Of a DNA stretch of 64,000 bases, positions 5,691 through 60,571 are shown one piece after another (position 1 is the first letter of the stretch; every line of letters begins with the position of its first letter). The notes beneath the pieces are model-generated. The model ran no database searches and was not told the origin of the DNA. It was given only the letters and a program-made list of their open reading frames with translations. This DNA is from a virus. Lineage: Duplodnaviria; Caudoviricetes. Location of the stretch: IMG/VR virus record IMGVR_UViG_3300010357_001370, positions 1 through 64,000 of that record; one strand, written 5' to 3'. The position numbers were made by a program, and so were the translations under genes.

Positions 5691-6722
5691 TTATCTAGGA
5701 ATTATGTCTAAACTTTCGTACAGCTCTCCGTACTCACGCCAAACACCGATACACTTAGAATCGAATTGGCATGCTCTACAAGCAGGTGATTTGATCTTCG
5801 AATACGGTTTGTACTCTCCGTAGTCTGTTCTTTCCCAATTGTTATTGATGAAGTCGACTCCGAGTTTATGCACACTTCCATTATCCCCATCATCTACGTT
5901 GATGACCTTATCTTGAAATGGATAAAGGTAACAACGAGGAATGTAATGCGTACTAATCTTATCCCCATACTTTTCTAACAGTACAAATAACGACTCCGCT
6001 ACATCGGTATACCTGGGAACAATATACGTAGAAGCTGCAGCTCCTACCGGATGAGGAAATGTAAATGTCATAGACATTCCGGGTTGGATTGCTTGAAGCA
6101 TCTCCGCAACATCAAGAAGGTTTCGATAATTGAATTGATTGATTACTGTATTTGTATTAACATAGATTCCCGCATCTACAAGATTTCGAATCCCTGCTAG
6201 AGTCTTTTTCCATGACCCTGGTAGTTGTGTAATTGCATCATGAATAAATGAATTTGCAGAATGGACAGGTATGAACGCGGAGTCAAGATATGGCGCAATC
6301 TCTTTGAAATACTCTGGATCGCCTAGTAATACCCCATTGGTCTGCACGTTGTTAATACATCCCCGAAGTCTAACGTAGTCGAGAAGTTCAGCGAGCTCCG
6401 GTCGAACTGTTGGTTCTCCACCAGTCACTACTATTATAGTTGTATCCGCTGGAGCTTCATCGATAGTCTGTTTAAGTTCTTCAAGAGTCCGATCATTAGA
6501 TGTCTGCTTCTTATCTTCAGTGAAGCAGTGCACACACTTTTCGTTACACGCGTAGCCCATTCGAACTGTGTAGAAGGATGGGTTCTCGTTAATGAGAGCA
6601 TCGACGTTAAAGAGATGACCCGGGTTCCTAGCTTCAAAGAGAGCTATCTTTTGCTCTACTTTAAGACTTGGAAAGCGCTGCTTGATTAGCGCAATCTTAT
6701 CTTGACGGGTCATCATACACAA
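5691..6722 (-). CDS. Radical SAM protein, HxsC-like
   Basis: CNEKCVHC, TGGEPT, C-terminal CRACQFDSKCIG; paralog of the N-half of 8285..10210. Confidence 0.9.
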   Translation of the reverse strand: MCMMTRQDKIALIKQRFPSLKVEQKIALFEARNPGHLFNVDALINENPSFYTVRMGYACNEKCVHCFTEDKKQTSNDRTLEELKQTIDEAPADTTIIVVTGGEPTVRPELAELLDYVRLRGCINNVQTNGVLLGDPEYFKEIAPYLDSAFIPVHSANSFIHDAITQLPGSWKKTLAGIRNLVDAGIYVNTNTVINQFNYRNLLDVAEMLQAIQPGMSMTFTFPHPVGAAASTYIVPRYTDVAESLFVLLEKYGDKISTHYIPRCYLYPFQDKVINVDDGDNGSVHKLGVDFINNNWERTDYGEYKPYSKIKSPACRACQFDSKCIGVWREYGELYESLDIIPR

Positions 6723-6990
6723 TACCGTCGCAAGGGTCTACGTTTGGGGCAGGCGCGTGACAGGTATTCTCTGGAGCTCGGTATGGTACGTTCATCTCAC
6801 CGCTAATAGCGGACGTGAACATATTAAAGCACTCGTAACATAGCACCTCACGAGAACCAACGTCGAGGTTAGGTATAAATTCCCAAACTCCATCTTCTCG
6901 TAAGCGGTCTACTCGAGTTTGGATTCGGATATCGACTCGAAAATCCTTAAATTCTTTACCGCAACGGGTACAGTATGATACTTCATTCAT
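6697..6990 (-). CDS. Small CxxC...CxxC zinc-binding protein, paralog of 48709..48951
   Basis: CTRC...WEFIPNLD...EVLCYECF. Confidence 0.7.
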   Translation of the reverse strand: MNEVSYCTRCGKEFKDFRVDIRIQTRVDRLREDGVWEFIPNLDVGSREVLCYECFNMFTSAISGEMNVPYRAPENTCHAPAPNVDPCDGIVYDDPSR

Positions 6991-8281
6991 CTCGCGCCAC
7001 CTTAATCTTATTATCTTCTAATGTAAGTGTGATTCCCGACGTCAGCAACTTAGATCGGATATTTTCCTTGATAAAGAAGATTTGATCATATACAGAGATA
7101 GGCGTTCCTTTCTCAATGAAAACCTGAAGAATTTCTTCAAGATGCTCAACTACGAAGCGATAGAAATCCCTATGCTGATCACAAACAATCCGGGTATCGA
7201 TTCCATATGTGCCGTACTTTGATTTGTAGAAAGCTTCACAGCCGTGATCACAAATATAATCTGCGTAACAAGTATCGCAACCAACCTCTTTGTAGACCCT
7301 GCTCTTCATAATATTGTACTCTACGGCTTTCTTAATTTGATGAAGGCCAGCAAAGTCGTAATCAAGAGCATGCTGAACATAAGCTTCGGGGAACTTCTTT
7401 GAGTACCTATCACAATAATCCATCTCACCATCAGGCTCGACTGCGATCATATGAGTGCCGGCGCCGCACCATTTTGTACCACACCCGGACTTAGATTCAT
7501 TTCCATGGTACGTTATGATGTCGATTAGAGACTTTACAAGAAGTTCATGGGTATGGTACTCCTGAGTCTTCTTACGCTGAATGAAGCGCTCAAGCTCGGG
7601 TTTCCAGACCTTCTCGAACATCTCTTTACCTGTAAGCTCAATCTCACTATTCTCTCCGGGGTTGATCATATCCTCGGCGTAGTTAATCTTATAGCCTCGA
7701 ACAACCCCGGTATTAGTTTCATGTAGACCGAGGTTCTCAAGGTACTGCTGAGTAGCTTGCATATTCTCTACATTCGTCTTACTTGCTACAATAAGAAAAC
7801 CGAACTGCGTTTTGTTACGCTTAAGGATATCAAACTTCTTTTCAAAGATATCCTGCTTAATTGTCGTAGTTCGAGCGTTATTGCCACCGTCTATCCCGTC
7901 GAAAGATAACCCAACACTAACTTCAAACTTCGTTAGCATCGCTGCGAAATCATCATCTAGTAGAGTGGCGTTTGTCTGGCAGCCGAGAGCATACTGAATC
8001 CCTCTCGTTTGAAAGAGTGCTACAGTGTATGTGAGCATCTCATAAAAACGTTTCTTACCAAGTAGCAGAACCTCTCCACCATGAAAAACTAGTTGAAGAG
8101 GAATCTTATCGCGACCGTTAATGTACCGTTGCTCAGCAATCTGGTTGATAATCTTTTTATACAGCTCAAAATCAATTAGCTCGCCTTTATGCTCTCCCTT
8201 GTTCTGCATGAAGCAGTATTTACAATTGAGGTTACAATCGCGAGTCATTCGAAAAATAATCAGGTCTGTAAATCGAAACAT
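6983..8281 (-). CDS. Radical SAM/SPASM maturase (anSME/HxsB-like)
   Basis: CNLNCKYC, FHGGE, SPASM cysteines CG..WCGAG...C and C-terminal CDTC..DYICDHGC. Confidence 0.92.
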   Translation of the reverse strand: MFRFTDLIIFRMTRDCNLNCKYCFMQNKGEHKGELIDFELYKKIINQIAEQRYINGRDKIPLQLVFHGGEVLLLGKKRFYEMLTYTVALFQTRGIQYALGCQTNATLLDDDFAAMLTKFEVSVGLSFDGIDGGNNARTTTIKQDIFEKKFDILKRNKTQFGFLIVASKTNVENMQATQQYLENLGLHETNTGVVRGYKINYAEDMINPGENSEIELTGKEMFEKVWKPELERFIQRKKTQEYHTHELLVKSLIDIITYHGNESKSGCGTKWCGAGTHMIAVEPDGEMDYCDRYSKKFPEAYVQHALDYDFAGLHQIKKAVEYNIMKSRVYKEVGCDTCYADYICDHGCEAFYKSKYGTYGIDTRIVCDQHRDFYRFVVEHLEEILQVFIEKGTPISVYDQIFFIKENIRSKLLTSGITLTLEDNKIKVARDE

Positions 8282-12350: not shown

Positions 12351-12575
12351 GATTGTTCTCCTTGTTGGGTTGCGTAAATGTGTCTATAGAGGAATCTAGG
12401 TTTTAAGTACCACGCTCTCGCGCGTCACACCGCTTTGTAGCATCTAAAGCTAATCAGGTCCGTCATATCAGATCGGTCATTCGGGGCAGGTTTATCCCCT
12501 TGGGCATATATGTGTGTACCCTAATTCTCTCACATTTTAATTAGTGGCACCTCTTGTAGAGGTGTAATAATAGAG

Positions 12576-44997: not shown

Positions 44998-47334
44998 ATG
45001 GATTCAACACGACTGCGCGAAGGCGTAACTACATATCTAAGCTCTGCCTTTCCTCAATCTCAGATAGCGCGACAAGGCTTTATGGGTCGTCTATCGTCTC
45101 TTTGGGGATGGAGAGCTAGCTCTGCTCAAGATTCTCAGACAAAGTTATCAAAGAAGGCCGGCGTTCAGTTTGTTCGTGTTGATCCGAACAATAAGTCAAT
45201 GCGGGAGCTTGATGCCAAACTAGGAGCGCTTTTCCAGAACGTTCCTCTTTCCGACCGACTTGAAAAGCTCTTCGAAGCATGGCTTCGCGATAGTACGAAT
45301 GGATACGATGATCTTCGAGATCGTCAGAAGCGTATTAACGAGCTCAACTTCATGTACTATAATGATCCGTTTATTAGCCGCGTCGTTCAGCTTGTAGCTG
45401 ATGAAGCCACGCAGCTCGATGTTCAGGATCGTCTCCTTTCCGTAGAGAGCCCTGACCCGCGAATGGCTGAGCGAATCTATCAGCTCCTCGATATGTGGGG
45501 CATCAATCAGCAGCGCATCCATGGCATGTGCTTCGATTTGGAGCTTTGCGGTGAAGGTTTCTGGGCTAATAAGATTACAGCGAACGGCGTTGAGAAGATC
45601 ATTCCTCTTCAGGTAGGGCAGATCCTCGAACGCCTTGAGTTCAATCCTACAAAGGTAGCTGAGGAGATCAGAGCACGCCAGGGATCGATCATGACAATGA
45701 TCAATCGCGATGCTAAGCTCCAGATGCTCTTACAGTCCTTCGAAGAGCTGCAGGTCACAGAAAACTTCGCAGAGATGTTCGAGACAAAGCTTTTTGGTTA
45801 CGTTATCGATAACGAAACAGTTGTCCCGCCGTGGACGGTTACGCACTTCCGTCTAAATGCCGATCACTCAGAATTTTATCCATATGGACGCCCGCACCTC
45901 CTAGCAGCCCTAGCACCATTCAAGCAAGCTGCTTCGACAATGACGCTCCAGTCTCTTGCACGTATCCTCTCCTTCCCCGTAACGCTCTATAAGGTTAAGA
46001 CGGCACAGGGAATGGATACTGCAATGGTCTGGGACCACGTCAACAGCGTTCGAGAGCAGTATGACAACATCGGTGTTAATCCCGTTGCCGGTCAGTCTGA
46101 GGTCTACTCAGTTAACACCAAGATTTGGATTCCAGATGGTCTACTCGAAGTAGATGTCAAGGAGTCTAAGGCCGATATCGACTTCGTAGGCGACCTCGAA
46201 ATGTACATCGATCGTATCTGTATCGCGTCTGGTGTACCGAAAGGTTATCTCGTCCAGGAGTGGGGCGGGTTTGGTGCTAGCGCAGTTTCCTTAACTGAGC
46301 AGTTCAAGCCGTTCGCTCGCCACGTCTATACCATTCAGGCTTCCTTCCTCGAAGGTCTAGCTGATTTGATTCGCCTACACTTCGTTATTACTGGTGAGTT
46401 TGATTACACTACACCGTTTACACTCTCTATGCGCTTCCCGGCCGAAGAAATGTCCGAAGATAAGCGCAATGCTCGTCAAGGATCTATAGATCTCGCTAAA
46501 GATGTCATGGAGCTTATCGGTACTGCAATGGGTGTAAGTGATGAAGAGCCTCTACCGCCAGATGTCGTTAAGGATATCATGGCCAAATACACCTTCCTTG
46601 ATCCTACTGACGTCCTTAAGTGGACAAAGCAAGTAGGTGATCAGGTTCTTATTGCTAAGTCCCGCAGCGGGGACGACGACGAAGAAGGCGGAGGTGGTTC
46701 TTCCAGCGGAGGCGGCTCCAGTGGCGGCGGCGGAGGCCTCGATGAGCTAGAAGATATGCTCGGCACCGAAGGTGGCGAGGATATCGGCGGAGGCGATGAA
46801 GGTGGTGGGGAAACTACAGAAGAGAGTATGCGCCGTTCCCGCCGATTCGCCTTGAACAGAATTCGAGAAGCTCGCTTTAAGGAACTTCGAATGCGCTACC
46901 GGGAAGTAAAGGATGATCTATACTTTAAGATACTCCGACAGAACAATATTACAGAGTTTACGCGTAACAAGCGCCACGTTATGCTAGCTAAAAATATTCA
47001 TTATTCTCAGGAACCGATGTTTGAGACGCTGAATGCTTGGAGAGAGTATCAGAAGACGGGCAAGGGTCCTGCTAAGATGAAGACACTTCACGAAACGCTA
47101 GTAGCTATGAAATTAGAAGATGCTACGCCGAACGCCGGAGATATGAAGTTTGAAAATATCAAGGCAGACATGTCCAAGGAGCGCGCACATCTCGAAGAAG
47201 ACGTTCCGGGCCCGAGGAATGAGAGTTGGACCGAACATCTAACAGAAGATCTCAGCGACGGGTTTAATGACGTTGAGTCTCAGGAGGCCGCAGTAGATGA
47301 TAGCGGGGATTTAGTACAAGAAGGGGATAGATAA
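44998..47334 (+). CDS. gp20: Portal protein, T4 gp20-like, with long C-terminal extension
   Basis: Y....P.ISR....VADEA, G..YL..A..P.KQ, LYKV..A, ASGVPKGYL, S.TEQ.KPFAR.V..IQ; Gly/acidic linker near the C-terminus. Confidence 0.85.
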   Translation: MDSTRLREGVTTYLSSAFPQSQIARQGFMGRLSSLWGWRASSAQDSQTKLSKKAGVQFVRVDPNNKSMRELDAKLGALFQNVPLSDRLEKLFEAWLRDSTNGYDDLRDRQKRINELNFMYYNDPFISRVVQLVADEATQLDVQDRLLSVESPDPRMAERIYQLLDMWGINQQRIHGMCFDLELCGEGFWANKITANGVEKIIPLQVGQILERLEFNPTKVAEEIRARQGSIMTMINRDAKLQMLLQSFEELQVTENFAEMFETKLFGYVIDNETVVPPWTVTHFRLNADHSEFYPYGRPHLLAALAPFKQAASTMTLQSLARILSFPVTLYKVKTAQGMDTAMVWDHVNSVREQYDNIGVNPVAGQSEVYSVNTKIWIPDGLLEVDVKESKADIDFVGDLEMYIDRICIASGVPKGYLVQEWGGFGASAVSLTEQFKPFARHVYTIQASFLEGLADLIRLHFVITGEFDYTTPFTLSMRFPAEEMSEDKRNARQGSIDLAKDVMELIGTAMGVSDEEPLPPDVVKDIMAKYTFLDPTDVLKWTKQVGDQVLIAKSRSGDDDEEGGGGSSSGGGSSGGGGGLDELEDMLGTEGGEDIGGGDEGGGETTEESMRRSRRFALNRIREARFKELRMRYREVKDDLYFKILRQNNITEFTRNKRHVMLAKNIHYSQEPMFETLNAWREYQKTGKGPAKMKTLHETLVAMKLEDATPNAGDMKFENIKADMSKERAHLEEDVPGPRNESWTEHLTEDLSDGFNDVESQEAAVDDSGDLVQEGDR

Positions 47335-48671
47335 TGGCTATTTCAACTGCTATTCAGACCAGCGGCGCAACTATACAATTTGGAACAGTCAGCGGTTCCG
47401 CATTTACTGCTGGTAATATTAGAATTAAGGGATCAGCTACCGTAGACGGTCAGCTAGATATCAATTCTTCTGCTGCACTCGCTGTGACTGCTTCCGTACT
47501 GGCCGTCACAGCTTCTGGAGCGGTAGGCATCACATCCTCTAAGCCTATTCAAGCAGCGTCGTCCGCGGTGATTGGTGGCTCCGGCGGAGTTCTCCCCGCT
47601 ACGTCCGGATCGCTTTCTGCAGGAGGTGGACTCCTCGTTAAAGATGAGACATCTGGTAAGAATTGGTTCCTCCACGTACACGCAGATCGTATTAGGTTGT
47701 TCGACGGGGTATCGACAGAGCTAGTCTTTACCACTCCGGCTGATTCCATAGCCCAGGCTACCAATGCTCTCGCCTGCTCAGGTAACGCCGCAACCGCTAC
47801 TCTTGCTGCAGCAGCTACAAAACTTGCAACAGCTCGAACGATTGGTGGGGTCAGCTTTGATGGGACAGCAAACATCAATCTCCCTGGCGTTAACACATCC
47901 GGTAATCAGAATACCTCAGGAAATGCCGCTACTGCGACACTAGCTGCTACAGCTACTACAGCAACAAATGCTCTTGCATGTTCCGGTAATGCCGCTACTG
48001 CGACACTAGCTGCTACAGCTACTACAGCAACAAATGCTCTTGCATGTTCCGGTAATGCCGCTACTGCGACACTAGCTGCTACAGCTACGATTAGCTACAA
48101 TAATAGATCAGCAGCTAACTACCAGATCTTATTTGGCTCCGGTGTCGGGCTATATGCTTCAGACCTTGTAACAATGAATCCCAGCACAGGAACAATCACA
48201 ACTACAAATATTAGCGGAGCAGGCCGAGGAGGAATAATTTCCGGCTTCAGTAAAGTCTATAATGCTGTTTGGAATGATTATGCCGACTATATTTCTCTTG
48301 AAGGGCCAATTCCAATAATTCCAGGCCGGGTCTATTCGTACAACGGGCACTTTCATCAGATAGCCTCGTCGTATGCTGAGATGGGAGTAATCGGTATCTG
48401 TTCCGATACTTTCAGCTTTGTTGCAGGTCATAAAGAAGATGAATTCCAAGTACCAATTGCAGTCTGCGGATTCGTCTTAGCTTACGTTGATAAAGTCTAT
48501 CCGTCAGGGACTCCACTCACGTCAGCCACCGACGGTGGGCTAACCGAGATGACTCTAGAAACCAAAATGAAGTTCCCGGAGCGTTTGCTAGCTACTTTTT
48601 ATAAAGAAGAGAGAAGCACCGCTTGGTACGGAATAGAGGTTAATGGACGGCACTGGGTTCAAGTTCGCTAA
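47334..48671 (+). CDS. Tail fibre/spike-like protein with GNAATAT repeats
   Basis: GNAATAT(K/L)LA repeats, ARTIGGVSFDGTANI, C-terminal NAVWNDYA domain. Confidence 0.7.
   Translation: MAISTAIQTSGATIQFGTVSGSAFTAGNIRIKGSATVDGQLDINSSAALAVTASVLAVTASGAVGITSSKPIQAASSAVIGGSGGVLPATSGSLSAGGGLLVKDETSGKNWFLHVHADRIRLFDGVSTELVFTTPADSIAQATNALACSGNAATATLAAAATKLATARTIGGVSFDGTANINLPGVNTSGNQNTSGNAATATLAATATTATNALACSGNAATATLAATATTATNALACSGNAATATLAATATISYNNRSAANYQILFGSGVGLYASDLVTMNPSTGTITTTNISGAGRGGIISGFSKVYNAVWNDYADYISLEGPIPIIPGRVYSYNGHFHQIASSYAEMGVIGICSDTFSFVAGHKEDEFQVPIAVCGFVLAYVDKVYPSGTPLTSATDGGLTEMTLETKMKFPERLLATFYKEERSTAWYGIEVNGRHWVQVR
47922..48088 (+). repeat. Perfect 66-bp tandem repeat, 2.5 copies (NAATATLAATATTATNALACSG)
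   Basis: Units start at 47922, 47988 and 48054 and are identical at nucleotide level. Confidence 0.95.
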
Positions 48672-48708: not shown

Positions 48709-48951
48709 ATGGACCTGCGACACAATATTACTATATGCACTCGATGCAAGAAGCCCCTAACAGGCTTGAAGTACTACATCTCGTTAAAGATGGACGCACT
48801 AAAAGAAAAGGAAAGCGGGGCTTGGGAAACAATACCCACTCTCGACCTAACTACAAATGAGGTGGTTTGTGACACTTGCTTTGAAACATTCTCGCAAGCC
48901 ATAATTGCAGGTATGTCGCAGGAGAAGGCCGATGAGTCTTCAGCGTCCTGA
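48709..48951 (+). CDS. Small CxxC...CxxC zinc-binding protein, paralog of 6697..6990
   Basis: CTRC...WETIPTLD...EVVCDTCF; AGGAG SD. Confidence 0.75.
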   Translation: MDLRHNITICTRCKKPLTGLKYYISLKMDALKEKESGAWETIPTLDLTTNEVVCDTCFETFSQAIIAGMSQEKADESSAS

Positions 48952-50101
48952 GGAACTGGGGATAACTCAGTTCGAACTTGTAGTAACCGAAAACTGCAAT
49001 TCGAAGTGTACATACTGCTTCGATAACTATTTCGCCGGACAGCGCATTAACACAAAGGATCCTACTCGTTGGATGCAACCGGAGCTTATTCCAGACCTGA
49101 TCAAGTTTATGGATAAGACCTGCGCTGATCCAAAGCAGGAAAAGCGTCTCAACATTCACTATATCGGCGGCGAACCTCTCATGAATTTTGAATTTATGAA
49201 AGCAAGTGTCCCGGCATTCAGAGAGCACTTTGGCCCACGCGTAACGTTTTCTATCAACACAAATATCCTACTCATCACAGATGAGATTCTAGAGATGTTT
49301 GTAAAGTACAACTTCAATATCACGACATCTATCGATGGAGGCCGAGAGTCCCATAACGCTCACCGAGGAAACTGGGAGAAGGTAATTGAGAACCTGATAC
49401 GTATCAAAGCAGCTTTTCTTGATGCTAAGGGTCCGGGAGCCGATGTAGCTGCCATCGGAGCAGTGTTTGTTGTTAGTGCCGATCGATCCGATTATGTCGT
49501 CGAGGATTATAGAACTCTTTCCAAGTTCTGCAATTGTCGTATTAACCTTAATGCCGAGGATCCGCTCTGGACCGACCAAAAGGTAGACGATGTCTGCAAC
49601 GCAATTCGTACAATCGCCGCTACTACACCAGATTTCTTTTCAGGAGATCTCGTCGGTGGATTTGAGCCTAAGTATTGGACAGCAATAGAGGGCAATGGAA
49701 GTCCATTCTTCTGTCACACGCCGATACATAATGTAACAATCAATCCGATGGGTAAGCTATTTTTCTGCCACAGACTTACTCCAAAGTCCTATGAATTTAC
49801 TCCAGAGTTTTCGGAATTCTATGGTGATATTTACCAGGGATATTATAACACCGACTACTACACCAGCATGATAGAATGTCGTGTTGGGGGATCTAACATG
49901 TTCGAGGATTGTAAAACATGTAAATACGTTAATATGTGTCGGCAGAATTGCCGTGCAGTACACATTGCTAACGGCGGTAAAGTTAATAAAATCATGTGTA
50001 AGTATATTCAAACGTACTTCGATCTTCTAGAACAACACTACGGTCGGGCACTAAATAGGAAGCCTAATAGAGGAGATCTCAATGCCAACCTGTGCACCTA
50101 A
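48932..50101 (+). CDS. Radical SAM/SPASM maturase
   Basis: CNSKCTYC, IGGEP, SIDG, FCHR, CKTC....MCRQNC; start taken at 48932 (AGGAG SD). Confidence 0.92.
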   Translation: MSLQRPEELGITQFELVVTENCNSKCTYCFDNYFAGQRINTKDPTRWMQPELIPDLIKFMDKTCADPKQEKRLNIHYIGGEPLMNFEFMKASVPAFREHFGPRVTFSINTNILLITDEILEMFVKYNFNITTSIDGGRESHNAHRGNWEKVIENLIRIKAAFLDAKGPGADVAAIGAVFVVSADRSDYVVEDYRTLSKFCNCRINLNAEDPLWTDQKVDDVCNAIRTIAATTPDFFSGDLVGGFEPKYWTAIEGNGSPFFCHTPIHNVTINPMGKLFFCHRLTPKSYEFTPEFSEFYGDIYQGYYNTDYYTSMIECRVGGSNMFEDCKTCKYVNMCRQNCRAVHIANGGKVNKIMCKYIQTYFDLLEQHYGRALNRKPNRGDLNANLCT

Positions 50102-51032
50102 CTATTTAAACGTCGGATATAAGGAATATTTTAACGCCACCGGAGCAAATTGTCAGCAGTACACAAATGGTGGCGGAAACGCTTGTGTTCAATATTGCCC
50201 TGCGAACGCAACTACCTACAACAGATACGGAAATGCTTATACTCCAGCCTGTACAGAGGCTCGCTGCGCTCAATCATATATAAACGCCTTTGACGATTGC
50301 GCGCAGTACTACAACTATTCAAACTATCTGAATTATACGCGAAACGTTTCTGGAGCCGGAGCGTATTCTCTTGGACTTAATACTACACTTATCGATAGTG
50401 TTACGACTGTAGACGCTACTGCTATCAGCGCAATTAAGCATATGCGAGATAAGCTAGTAGAGCTCGTTAACAATAAGCCCCAGCAATCTACAGTTCCTGA
50501 AACCGGGCTTACTGCAGTCTCTGATGCTACTTTTGACGACGGCAACCCGTCGACGATAGAGAAAACTGCCGCAGCCCAGTACAATGCTCTTCAATCTAAG
50601 TTTGCCGCTCTCCGGAATGCCATCAATACCGGGGTAGCCGTTAGTTCAACTCAAGTCGCACCCGGGGATACTCTTACTAAGAACCACCTAACAGCTTTGA
50701 AAACAGATCTAACAAACTTAGCGGCTGCCTGTTATCAGACATACGCTAATCAGCAAGTAGGTGCAGGGTACGCTAACGCCAACAGTGCATATACTCGCGC
50801 TGTTTATGGCGCTTCGGTTGCGTACACAAATGCATACTGCGCAGAGTATATCTGTACCAACACGGGCTCCGGCTGCGGGCAATACAATTACTCGGATTAT
50901 TCCAATTGTACGAATACATTGAGTTGCGGCAACTGCCGAAATTCGGGTCACTATAACTATAGTAATTACTCGAATCATGCAAATCATTCAAATCATTCGA
51001 ATTATTCAAATGTTTGCAGAAGAGATTACTAA
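50082..51032 (+). CDS. Cys/Tyr/Asn-rich putative rSAM substrate A with C-terminal NHS/NYS repeats
   Basis: ~15 Y-x-N and 4 H-x-N motifs; ends NYSNYSNHANHSNHSNYSNVCRRDY; GAGGAG SD. Confidence 0.8.
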   Translation: MPTCAPNYLNVGYKEYFNATGANCQQYTNGGGNACVQYCPANATTYNRYGNAYTPACTEARCAQSYINAFDDCAQYYNYSNYLNYTRNVSGAGAYSLGLNTTLIDSVTTVDATAISAIKHMRDKLVELVNNKPQQSTVPETGLTAVSDATFDDGNPSTIEKTAAAQYNALQSKFAALRNAINTGVAVSSTQVAPGDTLTKNHLTALKTDLTNLAAACYQTYANQQVGAGYANANSAYTRAVYGASVAYTNAYCAEYICTNTGSGCGQYNYSDYSNCTNTLSCGNCRNSGHYNYSNYSNHANHSNHSNYSNVCRRDY

Positions 51033-51046
51033 AGAGGTAGTGAGAT

Positions 51047-52042
51047 ATGCCATCCTGTGCACCAAACTATGCTAACGTAGGCTACAAAGAATACTTTAAT
51101 GCCGCGGCTCCGGGAGTACAATACTCGAATTATGCAAATCTGTGTATACAGACATACTGTGCAGACTCTCGTGTAGCCTACTACGGTAACACAGGAGCTG
51201 GTGGCGGAGGTATATGTAACCAAGGTGTATGCTATCAAACCTGTACGAACTTCAATCAGTACGGTACCACGTACCCAGCAAATAAAGATGACTGCTCTCA
51301 GTATTCTAATTATAGTAACTGTACAAATTATGCCCGAAACGGTGGCGGAGCGGGCACAGTTCTTCCTGCACTCAGCCTCGATCAGTCTGTCATTGATGGA
51401 ATAACAGACATACCAACGTCAATTACAGCTGTAACCCATCTTCGAGATAAGTTAGCAACCTTAATTAGCCTTAAGCTAAGACAGGACACGGTCGACGACG
51501 CGATGCCTTCGACGATCAGCGATGCTACGTTTAATGATAGTAACTCAGCTACTGCTGAAATAACTCTAGCTACTCAGTATAATGCTCTGAAAACTAAAAT
51601 GGACGCTTTTTGGAATGCATTAAAGGCTGGAGGAACTACTCTCACTACTCCTAGCTCGGATGCGGTAAAATCTTCTGGAGATACCCTTTTTAAGAATAGT
51701 ATACTGGCTCTTAAAACGGATCTGGTGACTATAGCAAATGCATGCTCGCAGACATACGCTAACTATCAGAATGGTTACGCAGCTGTTCTTGCTGATACCT
51801 ATACGAATAGCGTCGCTACATATACTAGAACGACAGTGTATAGAGATGCGTTCTGTAGCCAGTTAGTTTGCACAAACACAGGTGGCGGTTGCGGCCAGTA
51901 CAATTATTCGAATTATAATAATTGTACAAATACTGTCTGGCACAACCGATACATGAATACTCAGGATTGTTGGAATTACGCTAATCACAGTAACCATTCG
52001 AACCATTCAAATTATCGCGATACCTGTAGACGAGATAACTAA
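51047..52042 (+). CDS. Cys/Tyr/Asn-rich putative rSAM substrate B, paralog of A
   Basis: Shared N-terminus MPxCAPNYxNVGYKEYFNA; ends NYANHSNHSNHSNYRDTCRRDN. Confidence 0.8.
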   Translation: MPSCAPNYANVGYKEYFNAAAPGVQYSNYANLCIQTYCADSRVAYYGNTGAGGGGICNQGVCYQTCTNFNQYGTTYPANKDDCSQYSNYSNCTNYARNGGGAGTVLPALSLDQSVIDGITDIPTSITAVTHLRDKLATLISLKLRQDTVDDAMPSTISDATFNDSNSATAEITLATQYNALKTKMDAFWNALKAGGTTLTTPSSDAVKSSGDTLFKNSILALKTDLVTIANACSQTYANYQNGYAAVLADTYTNSVATYTRTTVYRDAFCSQLVCTNTGGGCGQYNYSNYNNCTNTVWHNRYMNTQDCWNYANHSNHSNHSNYRDTCRRDN

Positions 52043-52058: not shown

Positions 52059-52757
52059 ATGACTTGTGAACTACAGTGGGATATTAAAGCTCAGGCTTTT
52101 AAGGGTATAGCCCAATTTACATATGCAGAGGACCCATCTAATCTTCCATTTGACGAACACGGATTCTACTATGGCGTTAAGTATGGATTTGATGGAGTAG
52201 TTACCGAGCGGTATTACGCTCTTCAACCCGGGGATATCTTCGTGAACGAGGATGCAGAAGATCCGGACCGTATCACTACCTTTAAGAGTATCACTAGGCG
52301 TACAGTGACTCCTACCGATTTCTACATATCCTATAGGTCCCGACCCTTTACTTATCTAGATAATCATCCAGAGATTCAGGTGGATAGCAGGCTTCTCGCT
52401 GCAGCAAACGGTCTCGGAATTCGGTATAACGCAGAATCGAAGGAAACTCTCGTATACTATGTACATGCTGTAGATCCTCGATGTCGGATGTTGATTGAGG
52501 GAACAGACGATGCGGCTTATCTGCGAGAAGATGCGGATTTCTTAAAGTTTACTCAAGAGCAAGCCGCTGCATTAACAGAATTCAAGTCTGCCGCAGGCGT
52601 TTCGTTCCACGGATTTGGAATAACCCATCTTGCAGAGATTATTATTGTTCCAGGTATTTATCGATATGTAGCTTTTTGGAACAACGATATTCTAAAGGAT
52701 TATCTTAATTTCTGGGAGGGAGAGTATGCACTTCCTGGTCAGATTTTCAACGTGTAA
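52059..52757 (+). CDS. Hypothetical protein in the rSAM operon
   Basis: GAGGAG SD; Tyr-rich, predicted beta-strands. Confidence 0.7.
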   Translation: MTCELQWDIKAQAFKGIAQFTYAEDPSNLPFDEHGFYYGVKYGFDGVVTERYYALQPGDIFVNEDAEDPDRITTFKSITRRTVTPTDFYISYRSRPFTYLDNHPEIQVDSRLLAAANGLGIRYNAESKETLVYYVHAVDPRCRMLIEGTDDAAYLREDADFLKFTQEQAAALTEFKSAAGVSFHGFGITHLAEIIIVPGIYRYVAFWNNDILKDYLNFWEGEYALPGQIFNV

Positions 52758-52766
52758 GGAGTCGAA

Positions 52767-54128
52767 ATGTTCCAGTTTAATAATCAACTCGTCTTAAAGG
52801 TAACGAAGGGTTGCAATCTTCGTTGTGAGTACTGCTATGTAATGAATAAGGACCTTCATGAAGGTCAGTTTATAGATTTTGAGCTCTATAAAAAAATTAT
52901 TGATGCTGTTGTTCTAGATAGACTTAAGTCTACTCAAGGTAAGAATGAAGACTTTAATTTAACCTTTCATGGTGGCGAGCCTACCACTATTAACAAAACT
53001 AGATTTTTCCAGATGTGTGAGTATGCCCGGGATAAGTTTTTCAAAGCCGGGCTTCATTTGTCGCTATCTATTCAAACAAACCTCACCCTCATCGATGAGG
53101 AGTGGTGCCAGCTTTTTAACCGCTTTAATGTAGCTGTCGGAGCTAGTTGGGACGGAACTGGACCGGCTAACGAAGCTCGTACAGACAAGTCTGAAGACTT
53201 CTATCATGAGAAGACTCAGATGTTTAAGAAGTATAATGTTCAGCACGGGTTTCTACTCGTAGTAAATCGGCATAGTGTAGACTATATCCCAGAGTCGCTA
53301 GAGATCCTAAAAAACAAATTCCATAAAAACCAAGGTCGACTCAACTACGTAGAGGATGTGATTACTCCCTTTGGGCAACCGAGTAGTATAGAAGTACCTG
53401 GAAAGGAATTTTTTGAAAAGGTGACAAAAGCCCAGGTAGATCAGTTCATCGCTACCGGCCAGTGTTTTGATGGTAATATTACAAATAGCATAGAAAAGTT
53501 TATGATTGACTACCTGACGAATGTAGGTAGCTTGTACCCGGAAAACGGTAACTGCTACGTCAAGTATTGCGGCTCTGGAATCAACGTATTGGAAATGGAC
53601 CCTGACGGTTCCGTTCTCTTTTGCGGCCGATACGGGGATGCTTATGAAGATGCCATTCTCATGCACGGGCTTGATGAAGACTTTCTCTCTATGAAGCAAA
53701 TACTAAAACATCTAGAGTTTCAGAAAGCTAAGATTGCAGCAATGAAGCGATCTCATTGCGACGACTGCAAAGCTCAGAATATTTGTGACCACGGTTGCAT
53801 GGCATATCACTATACGAAGCCGCAGGCGGACGGAACCCACAAGTGGGGTATTCGAAATGATCTAACGTGCGCTATGTTTAAGCCTCTATATGATTATATG
53901 TTTGAGCATGCTAACGATATTTTTGAGTCATATTTTAAGAACGACGTCGTCCCAGCCGGACAGACTCAACTTAGCCTACCAAAGTCTTCTAATTTCTATC
54001 CAGAGCTAAGTGTTTCTAAGATTCAAGATAGACTCCAGAAGTACGGGATAACAGTCGAAATTCGGGATTCGCGAATTATATTTAATGCACAGCGCCAGGG
54101 GTCATATGACCATACGGCTCATTGTTAG
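52767..54128 (+). CDS. Radical SAM/SPASM maturase, paralog of 6983..8281
   Basis: CNLRCEYC, FHGGEP, CYVKYCGSG, CDDC....ICDHGC. Confidence 0.92.
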   Translation: MFQFNNQLVLKVTKGCNLRCEYCYVMNKDLHEGQFIDFELYKKIIDAVVLDRLKSTQGKNEDFNLTFHGGEPTTINKTRFFQMCEYARDKFFKAGLHLSLSIQTNLTLIDEEWCQLFNRFNVAVGASWDGTGPANEARTDKSEDFYHEKTQMFKKYNVQHGFLLVVNRHSVDYIPESLEILKNKFHKNQGRLNYVEDVITPFGQPSSIEVPGKEFFEKVTKAQVDQFIATGQCFDGNITNSIEKFMIDYLTNVGSLYPENGNCYVKYCGSGINVLEMDPDGSVLFCGRYGDAYEDAILMHGLDEDFLSMKQILKHLEFQKAKIAAMKRSHCDDCKAQNICDHGCMAYHYTKPQADGTHKWGIRNDLTCAMFKPLYDYMFEHANDIFESYFKNDVVPAGQTQLSLPKSSNFYPELSVSKIQDRLQKYGITVEIRDSRIIFNAQRQGSYDHTAHC

Positions 54129-54136
54129 GAGACTCA

Positions 54137-55159
54137 ATGTCGAACGTCATTCTTACTCATGCATGCAATAAAGGTTGTTCATACTGCTTTGCTCGTGAAA
54201 CTCGCGACTCTCACGTAACTGTTGGAGCATGTGCAGACGATGTGCATATGTCAATGGAGATGTTTTCATCTATCCTTGACAAGCACGTAGCCAATCTGCC
54301 TCCGGGTCGAGCAGGTCAGGTTAAGCTTCTCGGTGGTGAGCCAACTCAGCATCCTAAATTCGACGAGATCCTTGCGCTCTGCTATGAGAGGAATATTGAA
54401 GTAACTCTGATCTCTAATTTTCTCTTCTCTAAGGAGAAGCGAGATATTATTCTAAAGTATCTTGAAGCGCGCCCCATGCATTTTCTTATCAACTCTACGG
54501 AGCTTGATCAGAAGAACCGTATGGAGATCTTCAAGGAAAACTATAATGAGATATATAAGTTTCTATATGCACGAAATGCTGAAGACAATATGTCGTGCGG
54601 GCTGACGCTTGATCAGGATGTAGGAATTGAATATTACATAAACTATATTGATTACTTGAAGGATAACCTCATCGCAATTGAGCATATGCGAGTAAGCTTA
54701 TCCTTCCCTGGCGATACGGATAAGAAGAATCAGTTTTTCTTTATTAACAATACTAAGCTTGGCGATAGCTTGGTGTTCATTACAAAGAAGCTTCTAGATG
54801 CTAATATCCCAGCTAACCTCGATTGTATTAACTTCCCGTGTATGTACGAGTCTAAAGAAGAGTCTAAGTTTGTAAAGAAATTCTTAGCTGGATCAGATAA
54901 GTATATCTGCGGAACCGGTCCCGGCCCTACGGACTATATGCCCGACGGAACAGCCATCTATTGCTATCCAAATGCTAACACCGTAGTAGACGCTACTAGA
55001 CTAAAGTCCGATACCGCAGTTCAGGAATCTCTTCGTATGAAATACCAGATTGCTAGAGCTACTCTAGTACTACCCGATGCCTGTCAGGAATGTAATGCTA
55101 GAAAGGCTGGGCAGTGCGACGGCCCCTGCTTAGGTTTCTTTAGTTATGATAAGATCTGA
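54137..55159 (+). CDS. Radical SAM protein
   Basis: CNKGCSYC, LLGGEP, C-terminal CQEC......CDGPC; AGGAG SD before 54137. Confidence 0.9.
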   Translation: MSNVILTHACNKGCSYCFARETRDSHVTVGACADDVHMSMEMFSSILDKHVANLPPGRAGQVKLLGGEPTQHPKFDEILALCYERNIEVTLISNFLFSKEKRDIILKYLEARPMHFLINSTELDQKNRMEIFKENYNEIYKFLYARNAEDNMSCGLTLDQDVGIEYYINYIDYLKDNLIAIEHMRVSLSFPGDTDKKNQFFFINNTKLGDSLVFITKKLLDANIPANLDCINFPCMYESKEESKFVKKFLAGSDKYICGTGPGPTDYMPDGTAIYCYPNANTVVDATRLKSDTAVQESLRMKYQIARATLVLPDACQECNARKAGQCDGPCLGFFSYDKI

Positions 55160-56267
55160 TGTTAATTTAACATATGTTACACTTCTGGTTACAGAGAACT
55201 GCAATCAGAAGTGTACGTACTGTTATGATAACTTTTTTGCAGGCGAGCGTGTTAACAGTGATAAGCCAGATGCCTGGCTATCTGTAGATATGCTTCCGAG
55301 TATTGTATCTTTTGTAGACAGCCACAGAGACAAATCTAAACCTATCCGATTTCATTATATCGGTGGCGAACCTCTTTTGAATTTCGAATTTGTCAAAACC
55401 AGCGCTAAGCAGCTGTTCTTACATTACGGTCCGTCTACAAAATTCTATATCAATACTAATCTTACTATCCTAACAGACGAGATGATTGATACTTTTGTAA
55501 AGTACCACTTTACAGTTACCACGTCGATAGATGGTCGTAGAGAGGCTCACAATAGGTATAGAGCAAATTGGGATCTCGTAATTCAAAATCTGATCCGACT
55601 AACAACGCGGTATATAGAAGCTTTCGGGCCTGATCATAATAGTATCCGGTCTAACTGCGTAGTTAGCGCTGCTAACGTGTCGACTCTATTAGAAGATTTT
55701 TTAGCAATCAATCGTTTTTGTCCATTACAGCATCTAGACTTCAATGCAGAGGACCCGGACTGGACTCCAAACAAGCTAGAGGAATTAAAGAGAGTTATTC
55801 AAACTATTGCAAGGTTAGTCCCGAGCTTCTTAAACGAGAACGGGGTGTATCAATCCGCAGTTAAGGCTCAAACAGATTCTAAGTATTGCTGTAACCCTCA
55901 TAGAACAGTAACAATAGGTCCCAGGGGTCGTCTTTACTTTTGCCACCGCCTCGTTCCTAAGTCCTATGTATTCACTCCCGGTTTCACAGAGTACTACGGA
56001 GATATATATGCCGACTACTCTAATACAGAGTATTTCGAACGAATGGATACGTACGAGAAAAATATAGGTCCCGAGTGTGCCGCTTGTAAATATCTTAAGT
56101 ACTGCAAAGGTGGCTGCAGAGCCTTAGATTGTAGTCCGAATCCGTTACCGAAAGGTATTGGGGTTCACCCAGATTGTACGTACCAGGGTATCATCTACGA
56201 CATATACGAAGAACTTAATAGTAAGTCTCTTAGTTCAGAATCCTTACCGTCTTCACCGGCGCCATAG
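55146..56267 (+). CDS. Radical SAM/SPASM maturase, paralog of 48932..50101
   Basis: CNQKCTYC, HYIGGEPLLNFEF, FCHRLVPKSY, CAAC...YCKGGC. Confidence 0.92.
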   Translation: MIRSDVNLTYVTLLVTENCNQKCTYCYDNFFAGERVNSDKPDAWLSVDMLPSIVSFVDSHRDKSKPIRFHYIGGEPLLNFEFVKTSAKQLFLHYGPSTKFYINTNLTILTDEMIDTFVKYHFTVTTSIDGRREAHNRYRANWDLVIQNLIRLTTRYIEAFGPDHNSIRSNCVVSAANVSTLLEDFLAINRFCPLQHLDFNAEDPDWTPNKLEELKRVIQTIARLVPSFLNENGVYQSAVKAQTDSKYCCNPHRTVTIGPRGRLYFCHRLVPKSYVFTPGFTEYYGDIYADYSNTEYFERMDTYEKNIGPECAACKYLKYCKGGCRALDCSPNPLPKGIGVHPDCTYQGIIYDIYEELNSKSLSSESLPSSPAP

Positions 56268-57091
56268 CAGAATTTGCAACCTGCTGTAAATTCTCTATTC
56301 CAGATTTGATGAGCTATATCGCGAGTGCGTTCTGTACCTAGCATTTCAAGCACCGGGGTACTGAACGCATTCCCTATGTAAGTGCCATCTTCGCGTAGCG
56401 GCTGGCATACACAAAGCGAAACTTCTCCGGTAGTTAAGACAGATACTTGAAACGGGGAACAGTGTTCGAGTTTTGGAACAGTAGACCAATCCCGGATTGC
56501 GGGGTCTTGTAGAGACGGAAGACCTAGTCTTTCAAGGTAGTTCTCAAAGTCATATTCCGGGTCGATCAGCCATTTCATAAAGCCTTCAGAGTAGACATCG
56601 ATAGTTGTACCAGACTGCATTTCCGGTACAACAGCAGGACCCATATTAGGATGATAGACGCGCTTAGCCTGCACCTGTGTTGGAGCGATAGCTTGGAGAC
56701 GTCTATAGTTTTCGAGAGTAAGGTCAAGAAGAGACTGAGGGATTGCATAATCGCTAAAGTCAACCGCTACGTATTGAATTTTAGTTAGCGTGCGGAGGTT
56801 TTCATCTGTCAATTCTGTAGCTAAGTTAGTTGCGATATAGATGAGGTGAAACCCTGCCGTGGCGAGACGATCTACAATCTCAAAGAAGTTCGGATTCATT
56901 AAAGACTCGCCTGCGGGAATAAAGAAGATACCTAGTCGATCCTTATCGTGTTGATTCAGAACAATAAAGCGTTCGATATCGGGAACGGTCATTATGTGGG
57001 TACCGTGCTGAGCTACTCCGGGGATAATGCAGCAATGCGGACATCTCTTTTGACAGATACCATATACGGCGTGAAGGTTTATATTGATCAT
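56195..57091 (-). CDS. Short radical SAM protein with SPASM/twitch-like tail
   Basis: CQKRCPHC, PAGES, C...GEVSLC..., IGN, CKFC. Confidence 0.8.
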   Translation of the reverse strand: MININLHAVYGICQKRCPHCCIIPGVAQHGTHIMTVPDIERFIVLNQHDKDRLGIFFIPAGESLMNPNFFEIVDRLATAGFHLIYIATNLATELTDENLRTLTKIQYVAVDFSDYAIPQSLLDLTLENYRRLQAIAPTQVQAKRVYHPNMGPAVVPEMQSGTTIDVYSEGFMKWLIDPEYDFENYLERLGLPSLQDPAIRDWSTVPKLEHCSPFQVSVLTTGEVSLCVCQPLREDGTYIGNAFSTPVLEMLGTERTRDIAHQIWNREFTAGCKFCYGAGEDGKDSELRDLLLSSSYMS

Positions 57092-58009
57092 TTATGCCTC
57101 TACGAGATTACGAAGTAGCTCTTGAAACGTCGGATCATCCTCACGTCCACAGCCTTTGCAACCTTTACAGGGAGCGAGCTTCCGGTTGTAGACGACGTCG
57201 TATGCGCGCTTAGACTGTTCAGTTTTGAAGAGATCGAACAGCGGAGTAGTGAATGCGTTCCCTGCATTAAGCTCCTCATGTCCCAGCGGCATCAGTCCGC
57301 AGTACGCTACCATTCCGGTCGGGAGAACTACCACTTGGCTCGGAATACAAGTAGCGTCAGTTACATCGGTGCTGGTAAATATCATCTCTCGATTATTTAC
57401 TATCGTAGGGTCGCTCGGATGAATATCGATCTGTTTGAGGTAGCGAAAATAATCGAACTTCGGCATTATATATTTGACCATGTCCCGAGAGAATATCTCC
57501 ACCGGTTCCGGTTGTAAGTTTATGCGGGAAGCTATGCGATCAGGAAGGACATACGAGTCTCTCGGATGGTACACCTTCTTTAGATGCACGTTGCTATTCT
57601 TAGCGATTCCTACTAAACGCTCCCAGTTGCTCGCTACTAGATCAGATTGCCATCGGGGAACCCGATATGAGCTAATATCTACTGCGATGTCTTTAATTTT
57701 ACTAAGAGTTTGGAGCTGTTCGTCGGTGAGATTAAGTGCAAGGTTAGTCGACATATGAAGGAGATTGAAGCCCGCTTCGTCTAGTGCATCTATAATTTTG
57801 AAGATATCCTTATTGATGAGAGGCTCTCCCATAGGAATTATGAGAATGAGAAACTTATCAGCGTGAGCTTTGTTCAGTCGAATGAATGCCTCAATATCGG
57901 ATAGCGTAATGTACTGAGGCTCTGCATATTCTCGCATGTATGGGATAACACAGTGACAGCAAGGACGCTGGCATGCTCCGTATGTTAGATACAGATTAAC
58001 TCGAATCAT
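57092..58009 (-). CDS. Short radical SAM protein, paralog of 56195..57091
   Basis: CQRPCCHC, PMGEP, C..SQV.VL.TG.V..C, GNAF, CKGC. Confidence 0.8.
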   Translation of the reverse strand: MIRVNLYLTYGACQRPCCHCVIPYMREYAEPQYITLSDIEAFIRLNKAHADKFLILIIPMGEPLINKDIFKIIDALDEAGFNLLHMSTNLALNLTDEQLQTLSKIKDIAVDISSYRVPRWQSDLVASNWERLVGIAKNSNVHLKKVYHPRDSYVLPDRIASRINLQPEPVEIFSRDMVKYIMPKFDYFRYLKQIDIHPSDPTIVNNREMIFTSTDVTDATCIPSQVVVLPTGMVAYCGLMPLGHEELNAGNAFTTPLFDLFKTEQSKRAYDVVYNRKLAPCKGCKGCGREDDPTFQELLRNLVEA

Positions 58010-59018: not shown

Positions 59019-59517
59019 GACAGAGGAGAGAAGAGCTGCTCAAGCGGAACGGGCTCGAGCTCTCTGGGTCGATCCGGAACATAGAGCGCGTGTATTAGCT
59101 ACTCGTTCCGCCACTTGCGAAGCCCGTCTTGAAGCTCTTCCCCTCGATGAAAAAGAGAAGCGGCTAAAAGATAGAGAGAGATCAGCTCGGTGGAAGCGCG
59201 GGGACCCTATTCCAGAGGACAGTTATATCTATAAAAAGCCTCCTGAGTTTAGTCAAAAAGTCTCCGCAGCTCTAAAGGGTCGTCCTAAAACTGTGGAACA
59301 TAAACAACATCTTTCAGAAGCCCGAAGAGCTAACCCGCGAGAATATTCTGATGCTGAACGACAAAGTAAATCTGCTAAAATGACTGGCCGTACTTGGATA
59401 CATTTTGAAAAGACATCTAAGATGTGTACTCAAGAAAATCTGCCAGACTATCTTGCTGAAGGCTGGCAGATTGGTCGAGCTCCTAAATATCCCACTTCAA
59501 AAGGTAACGAGGGTTAA
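58933..59517 (+). pseudogene. NUMOD3-type homing endonuclease remnant without nuclease domain
   Basis: KVSAALKGRPKTVEHKQHLSEARR, MTGRTWIH...YLAEGWQIGR; the N-terminal ~28 codons are antisense to another gene fragment. Confidence 0.55.
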
Positions 59518-60571
59518 TATATTTCATCGAAATGCTCGGATTGTCCTTAGCACGAAGAACGATACCCTCACGAACCTTGTCCGTGATGATGAATGTCCCC
59601 TCGGAGAGCTTTGCGACATCCTCCAACGTCTTGAGAGGAGGAACGTCGATGACCCATGGAACCATCTGGAACAGCTCGCAGTTGTCATCCTGGGTGAACG
59701 TGTCATCGAAGACGTGGCTGAGCTCATCGAGTACGAAGGCGATCTCGCTATTATCGAGACGCGTAGCGGTGTCGAGGTTCTGGACGGTGAAAACGAACAG
59801 CTTCACCTCAGTGAGGCCGATTCGGTTGCTCTGAATGCCAGGACCAGCCACCTCACCCTGAATGGCGAAGTTGGTCATCCTGCCAGTAGCAGCGTACTTA
59901 CGCATGCGCTTCTCGATGTTGTACTTGCGAGCCATCTTCCAGAAGATGTTGCTCTCAGTATCCTTCAGCTCCTGGTTGCGGCTGCAAACTCCGAACTCTC
60001 CGTTGAAGAGGAAGTAGGTGCCGCTCGACCCGTCCATCTTGACAGTGACGTCGAACTCATGCTCAGCGAGCATCTTCTCGAGAACGTCCTGCTCGAACCC
60101 CTGAGCCCTCAGCTCATCAGTCTTCTCGATGAAGCCCGGGAATGGACCCTTGGTGTCGCCACCGATCTGAGCAGTCTCCGGAATCTCGTACTTGACGACT
60201 CCGAGAGCGTCAGTAACGTCGGCACCTTCGAGAAAACGATTTGCATCGATAGCATTCTGAGGAGGGTACTTAAGCACGTCTGCAAAGTCTTCCAGAGGCA
60301 TACTGAGACCCTGGCTTACCTGGCCGCGGAGCTTGATAGTCTTGACACGGTAGTTGTAGGGTGCCATGAACTCGAAAATCGGAAGCTTCGGAAGAACCGA
60401 ATCAACCTCGAAGTAGACGCGCCTATCGCCAGGCTGCGGATTGGTATCTTTGTTGGTGACGCAGACCCAACCCATCGACTCGAACGTGATCTTAACAATG
60501 CTGTCAGCGTTCGGGATAGGCTCGACCGTCTTAATAGTCCTGATTGTTGCTAACTTACGCTTAATATCCAT
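59483..60571 (-). CDS. RNA ligase, DRB0094/Rnl2-like
   Basis: N-terminal OB-like region (PIPNAD, VYFEVDSVLP, IKLRGQVSQGL), KMDGSS, QGEVAGPGIQ, EGIV, K.IN..YLLK. Confidence 0.9.
   Translation of the reverse strand: MDIKRKLATIRTIKTVEPIPNADSIVKITFESMGWVCVTNKDTNPQPGDRRVYFEVDSVLPKLPIFEFMAPYNYRVKTIKLRGQVSQGLSMPLEDFADVLKYPPQNAIDANRFLEGADVTDALGVVKYEIPETAQIGGDTKGPFPGFIEKTDELRAQGFEQDVLEKMLAEHEFDVTVKMDGSSGTYFLFNGEFGVCSRNQELKDTESNIFWKMARKYNIEKRMRKYAATGRMTNFAIQGEVAGPGIQSNRIGLTEVKLFVFTVQNLDTATRLDNSEIAFVLDELSHVFDDTFTQDDNCELFQMVPWVIDVPPLKTLEDVAKLSEGTFIITDKVREGIVLRAKDNPSISMKYINPRYLLKWDI

Follow-up and report, generated by a model that had tools for sequence, protein, structure and literature searches.

A candidate phage-encoded, multi-enzyme radical SAM maturation system and its putative whole-protein substrates

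To our knowledge, nearly all described cases of polypeptide cross-linking by radical S-adenosylmethionine (rSAM) enzymes concern short peptides of bacteria; a few whole-protein substrates have been reported (QhpC, HxsA and CrpA), none of them viral. The present analysis concerns the first 64 kb (64,000 nucleotides, hereafter the window) of the 74.9-kb IMG/VR virus record IMGVR_UViG_3300010357_001370, in which two adjacent genes encode paralogous proteins, named A and B, rich in aromatic-x-Asn triads and flanked by rSAM genes, of which the window holds ten, carrying eleven clear rSAM domains. Since CheckV estimates its completeness at 29%, the record is taken to be a piece of a large phage.

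Described systems and the phage locus

In the triceptides, the modified motif is aromatic-X-X3, and the three-residue cyclophane is installed by rSAM/SPASM enzymes such as XyeB/XncB, YhhB, HaaB, HtkB, ChlB and OscB/GrrM (PMC11499958). The [Y/H]-x-N motif of A and B, often found in tandem, is of the same kind; here too, rSAM/SPASM enzymes devoid of a recognition element (RRE) of RiPPs (peptides made on the ribosome and modified after translation) are encoded beside the substrate, and YhhB, XyeB, AmcB and ChlB are among the matches of those phage enzymes that we call type II. Unlike the short leader-core peptides of the triceptide pathways, however, A and B are 316 and 331 residues long, with a folded core of 128 residues and 17-20 triads lying on both sides of it; a single rSAM enzyme acts there, whereas the phage system comprises at least five rSAM orthogroups and is encoded by a virus; Cys is part of the repeat unit of A and B; and the phage enzymes score below the family cut-offs, the anaerobic sulfatase maturase (anSME) scoring higher.

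In the antiphage system HXS, the substrate HxsA is a protein with period-3 His repeats, matured by HxsB and HxsC together with HxsD (PMC13128918). The phage locus likewise encodes a full-length protein with period-3 His repeats, two kinds of rSAM enzyme and a small partner, and HxsC-like rSAMs are found in it. The initial annotation had likened NHSNHSN to a Ser-to-Asn version of the HxsA repeat; the NCBIfam models of HxsA and HxsD matched neither A nor B nor their small neighbours even at E<=10, and the likeness is an analogy only, although HxsC-like rSAMs are part of the system. In contrast to the H-x-S repeat of HXS, that of A and B is [Y/H]-x-N (N-[HY]-[SA]), with no recognisable peptidoglycan-binding domain attached; the phage gene order differs, the enzymes are many more, and HXS sits in a bacterial defence island.

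Protein-sized substrates are not confined to HXS: QhpC is one, its maturase family being QhpD, and only QhpD was matched here. The phage type I enzymes match PapB, CcpM and QhpD best, and Cys-rich substrates encoded beside SPASM rSAMs are common to the phage locus, to QhpD/QhpC, to CrpC/CrpA and to the PapB-type ranthipeptide maturases; the phage scores, however, lie far below the cut-offs (113 vs 340 bits for PapB), the dominant motif of A and B is aromatic-x-Asn rather than Cys-x3-Asp, and the setting is a phage with several enzymes. A further protein-sized precedent is CrpA, the substrate in the CrpC/CrpA pair (PMC13692751).

As far as phages are concerned, we found no paper on a system such as the present one, and the only published phage rSAM or RiPP-like module that we found is that of the Thermus phages Cumys and phiMa, composed of an rSAM, a DUF483 protein and an unknown protein, for which the authors suggest a role in DNA modification, with no repeat protein discussed (PMC11437467). 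Each of the two modules places an rSAM in a phage genome beside conserved partners of unknown function; the Thermus-phage module has three genes and one rSAM, unlike the present one, and DUF483 was not detected among the proteins scanned here.

Architecture and repeat grammar of A and B

The two genes, and the one DNA-level repeat associated with them, are the following.

50082..51032, plus strand: protein A, 316 amino acids; N-arm 1-91, three-helix core 92-219 (nucleotides 50355-50738), C-arm 220-316
50973..51011, plus strand: DNA tandem repeat of 39 nt, period 9, 4.3 copies, encoding the N-H-[SA] run at the C-terminus of A; the only one
51047..52042, plus strand: protein B, 331 amino acids, paralog of A

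Both open reading frames (ORFs) are intact, and the products share 46% identity (E 3e-72); B starts 14 nt after the stop codon of A and is preceded by a good Shine-Dalgarno sequence. Protein A contains 19 [Y/H]xN triads (15 YxN and 4 HxN) and 15 Cys, protein B 17 triads (14 YxN and 3 HxN; 20 when F and W are counted) and also 15 Cys; these YxN and HxN numbers are exactly those of the initial annotation, and the motifs that it quoted (MP[TS]CAPNY.NVGYKEYFNA, SDATF.D.N, QYNAL, LKTDL, CTNTG.GCGQYNYS and an N-[YH]-[SA] run ending in CRRD[YN]) are all present. The abundance of YxN is not a consequence of composition: composition-preserving shuffles yield 4.0+-1.8 occurrences for A and 3.0+-1.6 for B, and the observed value was reached in 0/5000 of them. 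The excess (z 7.1 for A and 8.2 for B; 4.0 for the next-best of about 80 ORFs in the window) is specific to the register, YxxN and NxY not being enriched and NY only weakly so. As the tandem repeat in the DNA covers only 39 nt, most of the triads are scattered and not the product of slippage. Two other motifs were considered. The N-glycosylation sequon N-x-S/T was rejected as the main signal, since the enrichment seen in A (13 vs 7, p 0.01) is absent from B (8 vs 7.2); the NxxC motif of NxxcB shows no enrichment.

A word-indexed search of 5.8 billion proteins returned only nine clusters; with their profile, 1.8 billion representatives were then scanned in full by HMMER, which gave 32 at E<=0.001, and the family, with about 37 clusters overall among the 1.8 billion representatives, is rare. 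Its members share one layout, in which a conserved N-terminus is followed by an N-arm of highly variable length, a conserved centre, a YxN triad and a C-arm typically ending in H-T-N-H-x-N-Y. Conservation of the N-terminus begins with its first residue (M-[AP]-Y-S-E-Y-F-N in most members, MP[TS]C..NY..GYKEYFN in the clade of the window), and the sole invariant columns among 36 members are the Tyr and the Asn of one YxN placed directly after the core (Y221 and N223 of A). The [YH]xN triad is enriched in nearly all members (z 2.5-8.5) and, over the whole family, amounts to 522 occurrences vs 140 expected (z 32), [YH]xD being likewise enriched (z 7). Cys also keeps fixed distances family-wide, at -4 from the aromatic residue (138 vs 37 expected, z 19) and at -6 from Asn or Asp (z 15.5), so that the unit of the arms, as read from the sequences, is roughly C-x-[ST]-[ST]-[YH]-x-N-[YH]-x-N, that is C-x3-[Y/H]-x-N-[Y/H]-x-N. 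Within the clade of the window, 81% of the alignment cells are kept for the aromatic residue of the triad, 81% for its Asn and 88% for Cys, against 48% for the middle residue and 52% for the other positions of the arms; these sequence comparisons indicate that Tyr/His, Asn and Cys of the arms are under selection.

AlphaFold predictions agree with the three-part architecture that had been proposed for A and B, in that a confident helical core is placed between two arms that are not modelled. With nine close sequences the model of A was unusable (predicted local distance difference test, pLDDT, 36), while 36 family members gave a usable one, in which residues 92-219 form three long helices (pLDDT 83-94) and the arms, 1-91 and 220-316, remain below 50. 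Foldseek (PDB, BFVD) and exhaustive VIA-align searches with the core model retrieved generic helical bundles only, the best match being a designed filament at Z 10.5, a value that helical models reach by chance, with TssK at about Z 6, within noise for such models. Two weak rows appeared in the fold searches, a BFVD entry named 'SCIFF' (E 0.25) and an ESM-Atlas family of Cxxx-repeat rSAM targets (score 0.81). The resemblance of the middle segment to phage fibre or baseplate motifs, from which the initial annotation had drawn a structural role, found no support, the fold matches being generic and sequence matches in PHROGs, the PDB and Pfam being absent. In two members (P0030 and P0034), the loops that join the core helices hold inserts of about 80-110 residues, apparently non-helical, and therefore tolerate added domains.

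The most regular version of the repeat unit, far more so than in A and B, is found in P0015 (L009 10001-10924), where the N-arm consists of about eight near-identical 11-residue units, C-S-T-S-[HY]-S-N-S-N-N-A, and where the unit appears in its clearest form. Large leader domains, such as Nif11 and NHLP, exist among RiPPs. Near-identical tandem units of this sort are what multi-core precursors display, and the enzymes described below resemble RiPP maturases; A and B might be multi-core precursors themselves, recognised through a large helical domain akin to a leader, with arms that are cut into many small cyclophane or thioether peptides acting on the host or on competitors. This we regard as quite unlikely. 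Genes for a peptidase or an exporter were found in none of the recovered clusters, the arms of A and B are not repeats of one unit, the triads lie on both sides of the core, and the most conserved of them abuts it; together with the conservation of the core and of the N-terminus from its first residue, these observations favour an intact protein over a short RiPP precursor, as the initial annotation had supposed.

Radical SAM genes linked to the putative substrate gene

The genes that surround A and B in the window, and the second group of rSAM genes at a distance from them, are as follows.

48709..48951, plus strand: Zn-ribbon protein, CxxC...CxxC, 80 amino acids; in every lineage, usually directly upstream of a SPASM rSAM
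48905..50101, plus strand: rSAM type I, PapB/CcpM/QhpD-like, no N-terminal RRE; shares its last 20 nt with the beginning of A
52059..52757, plus strand: 232-amino-acid protein, conserved in the clade of the window only (59% identity in L007)
52767..54128, plus strand: rSAM type II, full-length SPASM, no RRE; closest to anSME, then to PapB and cyclophane synthases (AmcB, DynA, YhhB, XyeB, ChlB)
54122..55159, plus strand: rSAM type III, kept at 40-55% identity in every lineage for which the context suffices; not close to any named family
55146..56267, plus strand: rSAM type I paralog, 43% identity to 48905-50101
56195..57091, minus strand: short rSAM, C-terminus SPASM/twitch-like, member of a convergent pair
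57092..58009, minus strand: short rSAM with a SPASM/twitch-like C-terminus, 38% identity to its paralog at 56195-57091
5691..6722, minus strand: HxsC-like rSAM of the distant second cluster; ortholog inside the substrate cluster in L009 and L014
6697..6990, minus strand: second Zn-ribbon protein, 97 amino acids, paralog of 48709-48951
6983..8281, minus strand: rSAM type II paralog, 33% identity to 52767-54128 and 40% to an enzyme of L009
8285..10210, minus strand: protein with two HxsC-like rSAM domains; N-terminal half 47% identical to in-cluster enzymes of L009 and L014
24081..25229, minus strand: isolated rSAM; in L013 its ortholog (37% identity) is the last gene of the substrate operon

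The conservation of this arrangement was followed in nine independent contexts, namely the clade of the window (contigs L003-L008) and contigs L009, L013, L014, L010, L011, L019, L027 and L030. In all nine the genes of the system adjoin the substrate gene, and in most of them the order is rSAM-I, substrate, Zn-ribbon, rSAM-II and rSAM-III, that of the window being Zn-ribbon, rSAM-I, A, B, the 232-residue protein, rSAM-II and rSAM-III. Close relatives present a gene for a 778-residue protein, a fibre-like gene, the Zn-ribbon, an rSAM, one or two substrates and a gene for 231-234 residues, followed by two to five rSAMs, the smallest version (L007) having one substrate and three rSAMs; the same neighbours accompany distant members of the family, which are less than 30% identical to A. 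The 179-kb contig L009 has eight or more rSAMs, the 90-kb contig L013 two tandem substrates followed by five rSAMs, and L014 eight rSAM-related genes, one of which matches the SPASM domain only (Pfam); the short contigs L010, L011, L019, L027 and L030 are consistent with the same pattern. HxsC-like rSAMs are usually present too, and stand inside the cluster in L009 and L014. In L009, the protein that takes the position of the 232-residue one is not similar to it. No homolog was seen without neighbouring system genes, either rSAMs or the Zn-ribbon or both, one 1.8-kb contig showing the Zn-ribbon only; the presence of the same rSAM genes beside the substrate gene in every recovered context agrees with the earlier designation of A and B as putative rSAM substrates.

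BLAST comparisons sort these genes into a Zn-ribbon orthogroup and five rSAM orthogroups (type I, type II, type III, HxsC-like and the 24081-25229 type), to all five of which the substrate family is linked. The ten rSAM genes of the window look like a single system, because the enzymes encoded between 5.7 and 10.2 kb and at 24 kb have orthologs inside the substrate clusters of L009/L014 and of L013, respectively. The true start of the type I gene annotated at 48905-50101 is likely to be 48932, since its orthologs are 389 residues long. In each of the enzymes the CxxxCxxC motif begins no further than about 30 residues from the N-terminus, so that they are considered to have no RRE domain. Beyond the window, at 70726-70908 on the minus strand of the record (G000), there is a twelfth, weak Radical_SAM-like match (E 2.9e-4, in a 100-residue frame). 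The gene with a weak match to the major head protein adjoins the second rSAM cluster, at its 8285-10210 end; its product (10662-12350) does not resemble a second substrate, for it has no triad enrichment (z 1.7) and only 2 Cys.

Against the NCBIfam models, the type I enzymes match PapB best (113-114 bits, cut-off 340), then CcpM (94-96, cut-off 500) and QhpD (76-85, cut-off 453); type II matches anSME over its full length (115 bits), followed by PapB (101), AmcB (89), DynA (86), YhhB (84), XyeB (81) and GrrM (71), the scores for AmcB, YhhB, XyeB and GrrM being far below cut-offs of 310-450 and lower than that for anSME. The 8285-10210 protein has HxsC4 and HxsC as its top matches, at 172 and 153 bits, and so has the 5691-6722 protein, at 95 and 88 (cut-offs 500 and 268); HxsB matches the SPASM enzymes weakly (44-79 bits, cut-off 370). 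The top matches of the rSAMs (PapB, CcpM, QhpD, anSME, AmcB, DynA, YhhB, XyeB and HxsC) are all maturases of peptides or proteins, and the closest solved structures to types I and II are anSME, CteB and the triceptide synthase ChlB.

The HxsC-like enzymes raise the possibility that the matured protein is a phage effector comparable to Hxs, not a virion component, acting in the infected cell, for instance in superinfection exclusion (the blocking of DNA entry by competitors). Apart from the 172- and 153-bit matches and their in-cluster orthologs in L009 and L014, this explanation can point to a small partner and a SPASM enzyme loosely reminiscent of HxsD and HxsB, to a substrate that is a protein with period-3 His repeats, to the location of the L013 module away from structural genes, and to the finding that HXS blocks the entry of phage DNA (PMC13128918). 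We consider it unlikely, as no homology to HxsA or HxsD was detected even at E<=10, the Hxs cut-offs (268-500 bits) are not reached, and the gene order is unlike HxsD-B-C-A; moreover, the arms are rich in Asn, Tyr and Cys and not basic, and neither a peptidoglycan-binding domain is recognisable nor a signal peptide obvious by eye (no predictor being run).

In L009 (14099-20783) and L014 (14427-15197), genes for a KDO-8-P synthase, an aminotransferase, a cytidylyltransferase and a split carbamoyltransferase are interleaved with the extra rSAMs; these may constitute a branch of the pathway devoted to sugars, or else sugars may be the substrates of some of the rSAMs. Such an interleaving also suits an explanation in which A and B are low-complexity proteins that stay unmodified, their arms binding metals (for which His, Cys and Tyr are good ligands), adhering or self-assembling, while the rSAMs act on sugars, nucleotides or DNA, DNA modification having been proposed for the different rSAM module of the Thermus phages (PMC11437467). 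It is, in our view, very unlikely: in nine contexts, which include members less than 30% identical, the same rSAM genes flank the substrate gene; the nearest families of these rSAMs all mature peptides or proteins; and cross-linking enzymes read just such fixed spacings (aromatic +2 Asn, Cys -4 aromatic).

Elsewhere in the window, PHROG matches include a weak one to the major head protein (10662-12350, minus strand), a prohead-protease-like protein (15825-17801) and genes for a primase, an exonuclease and an RNA ligase, the last (59483-60571, minus strand; phrog_968, E 3e-66) being kept beside the module in close relatives. The gene at 18184-19734 (minus strand) encodes a strong EAL domain (E 1.8e-41) together with a weak, sub-threshold GGDEF match, and its product is, judging from these domains, likely a cyclic di-GMP phosphodiesterase. 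In the close relative L007, a TnpB/Cas12f-like gene of the IS605 OrfB type (12180-13457) is separated from the module by a few kb. No tRNA gene was found in a search of the window, and promoter and terminator scans yielded no more sites than expected by chance. A, B, the Zn-ribbons and the 232-residue protein have no match in Pfam, PHROGs, NCBIfam or PADLOC, and PDB sequence searches with the family profile and with the 232-residue, 778-residue, fibre-like and head proteins gave nothing useful. Searches by tblastn with A and the 778-residue protein against 50,697 phage records produced no match, a search of the viral collection for related loci recovered only the locus already known, and two degenerate DNA patterns had no match in the viral contig collection; a scan of metagenomes with degenerate patterns returned 31 stretches, of which 3 are true family members.

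A proposed maturation pathway and its meaning

We favour, with moderate confidence, a reading in which A and B serve as whole-protein substrates for a multi-enzyme rSAM maturation system that the phage encodes; modification by rSAM enzymes is the best explanation of the strict gene linkage, of the selected motifs with their specific spacings and of the kind of enzymes involved. The folded three-helix core would serve as the handle, in place of the leader peptide of a RiPP, and would be recognised either directly or through the small Zn-ribbon protein (possibly a partner or recognition subunit), a route suggested by the fact that none of the rSAMs has an N-terminal RRE. The RRE-less type II SPASM enzymes (anSME/XyeB/YhhB/ChlB-like) would abstract a beta-hydrogen and most likely join the ring of Tyr or His to the C-beta of the Asn two residues further on, giving a three-residue cyclophane of the triceptide type; the type I enzymes (PapB/CcpM/QhpD-like) would tie Cys into thioethers, which are suggested by the regular Cys together with the PapB/QhpD-like enzymes; the HxsC-like, type III and remaining rSAMs would carry out further steps. 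Triceptide-type cyclophanes and Cys thioethers are probably both formed in A and B, and the product would be an intact protein of about 320 residues with rigid, polycyclic and protease-resistant arms. More tentatively, and with doubt slightly outweighing confidence, it may be proposed that a lineage of large phages uses at least five rSAM classes to build cyclophane and thioether rings by the dozen in the two arms of a protein of its own of about 320 residues, the folded helical domain replacing the leader.

With regard to the mature proteins, a role as a virion or fibre accessory is our leading guess, although we think it rather more apt to fail than to hold. Upstream of the module, the gene at 47334-48671 has a clear tail-fibre PHROG match (E 1.6e-20), and the 778-residue protein a weak, sub-threshold match to the T4 portal (E 0.0014); from this portal-like gene through the fourth rSAM, the genes form a tightly packed run on the plus strand, which hints at late co-expression and at a role in the virion.

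Several observations weigh against the proposed pathway or parts of it. The adjacency to structural genes is not conserved, the L013 module lying among DNA-metabolism and small genes; as no enzyme reaches the curated cut-off of any family, the chemistry cannot be read from homology; and the best match of type II is anSME, an enzyme that oxidises Cys or Ser and forms no ring. A and B are, furthermore, 3-6 times longer than known triceptide precursors, their Asn/Tyr-rich, low-complexity arms could serve a role unmodified, and the sugar-pathway genes of L009 and L014 imply that some rSAMs may act on non-protein substrates.

Should the more tentative of these proposals hold, it would describe the first poly-cyclophane that is a protein and not a peptide, and the first RiPP-style maturation encoded by a virus for a late protein, possibly one associated with the virion. 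Five unassigned rSAM orthogroups would come with a putative substrate given in advance, and the system, in which a clear and strongly selected substrate grammar is coupled to an enzyme set that is fixed, lends itself to direct tests. It opens the questions of how rSAMs devoid of an RRE reach a folded protein, of whether a single chain can combine cyclophane and thioether chemistries, and of what a phage would gain from a rigid, protease-proof appendage.

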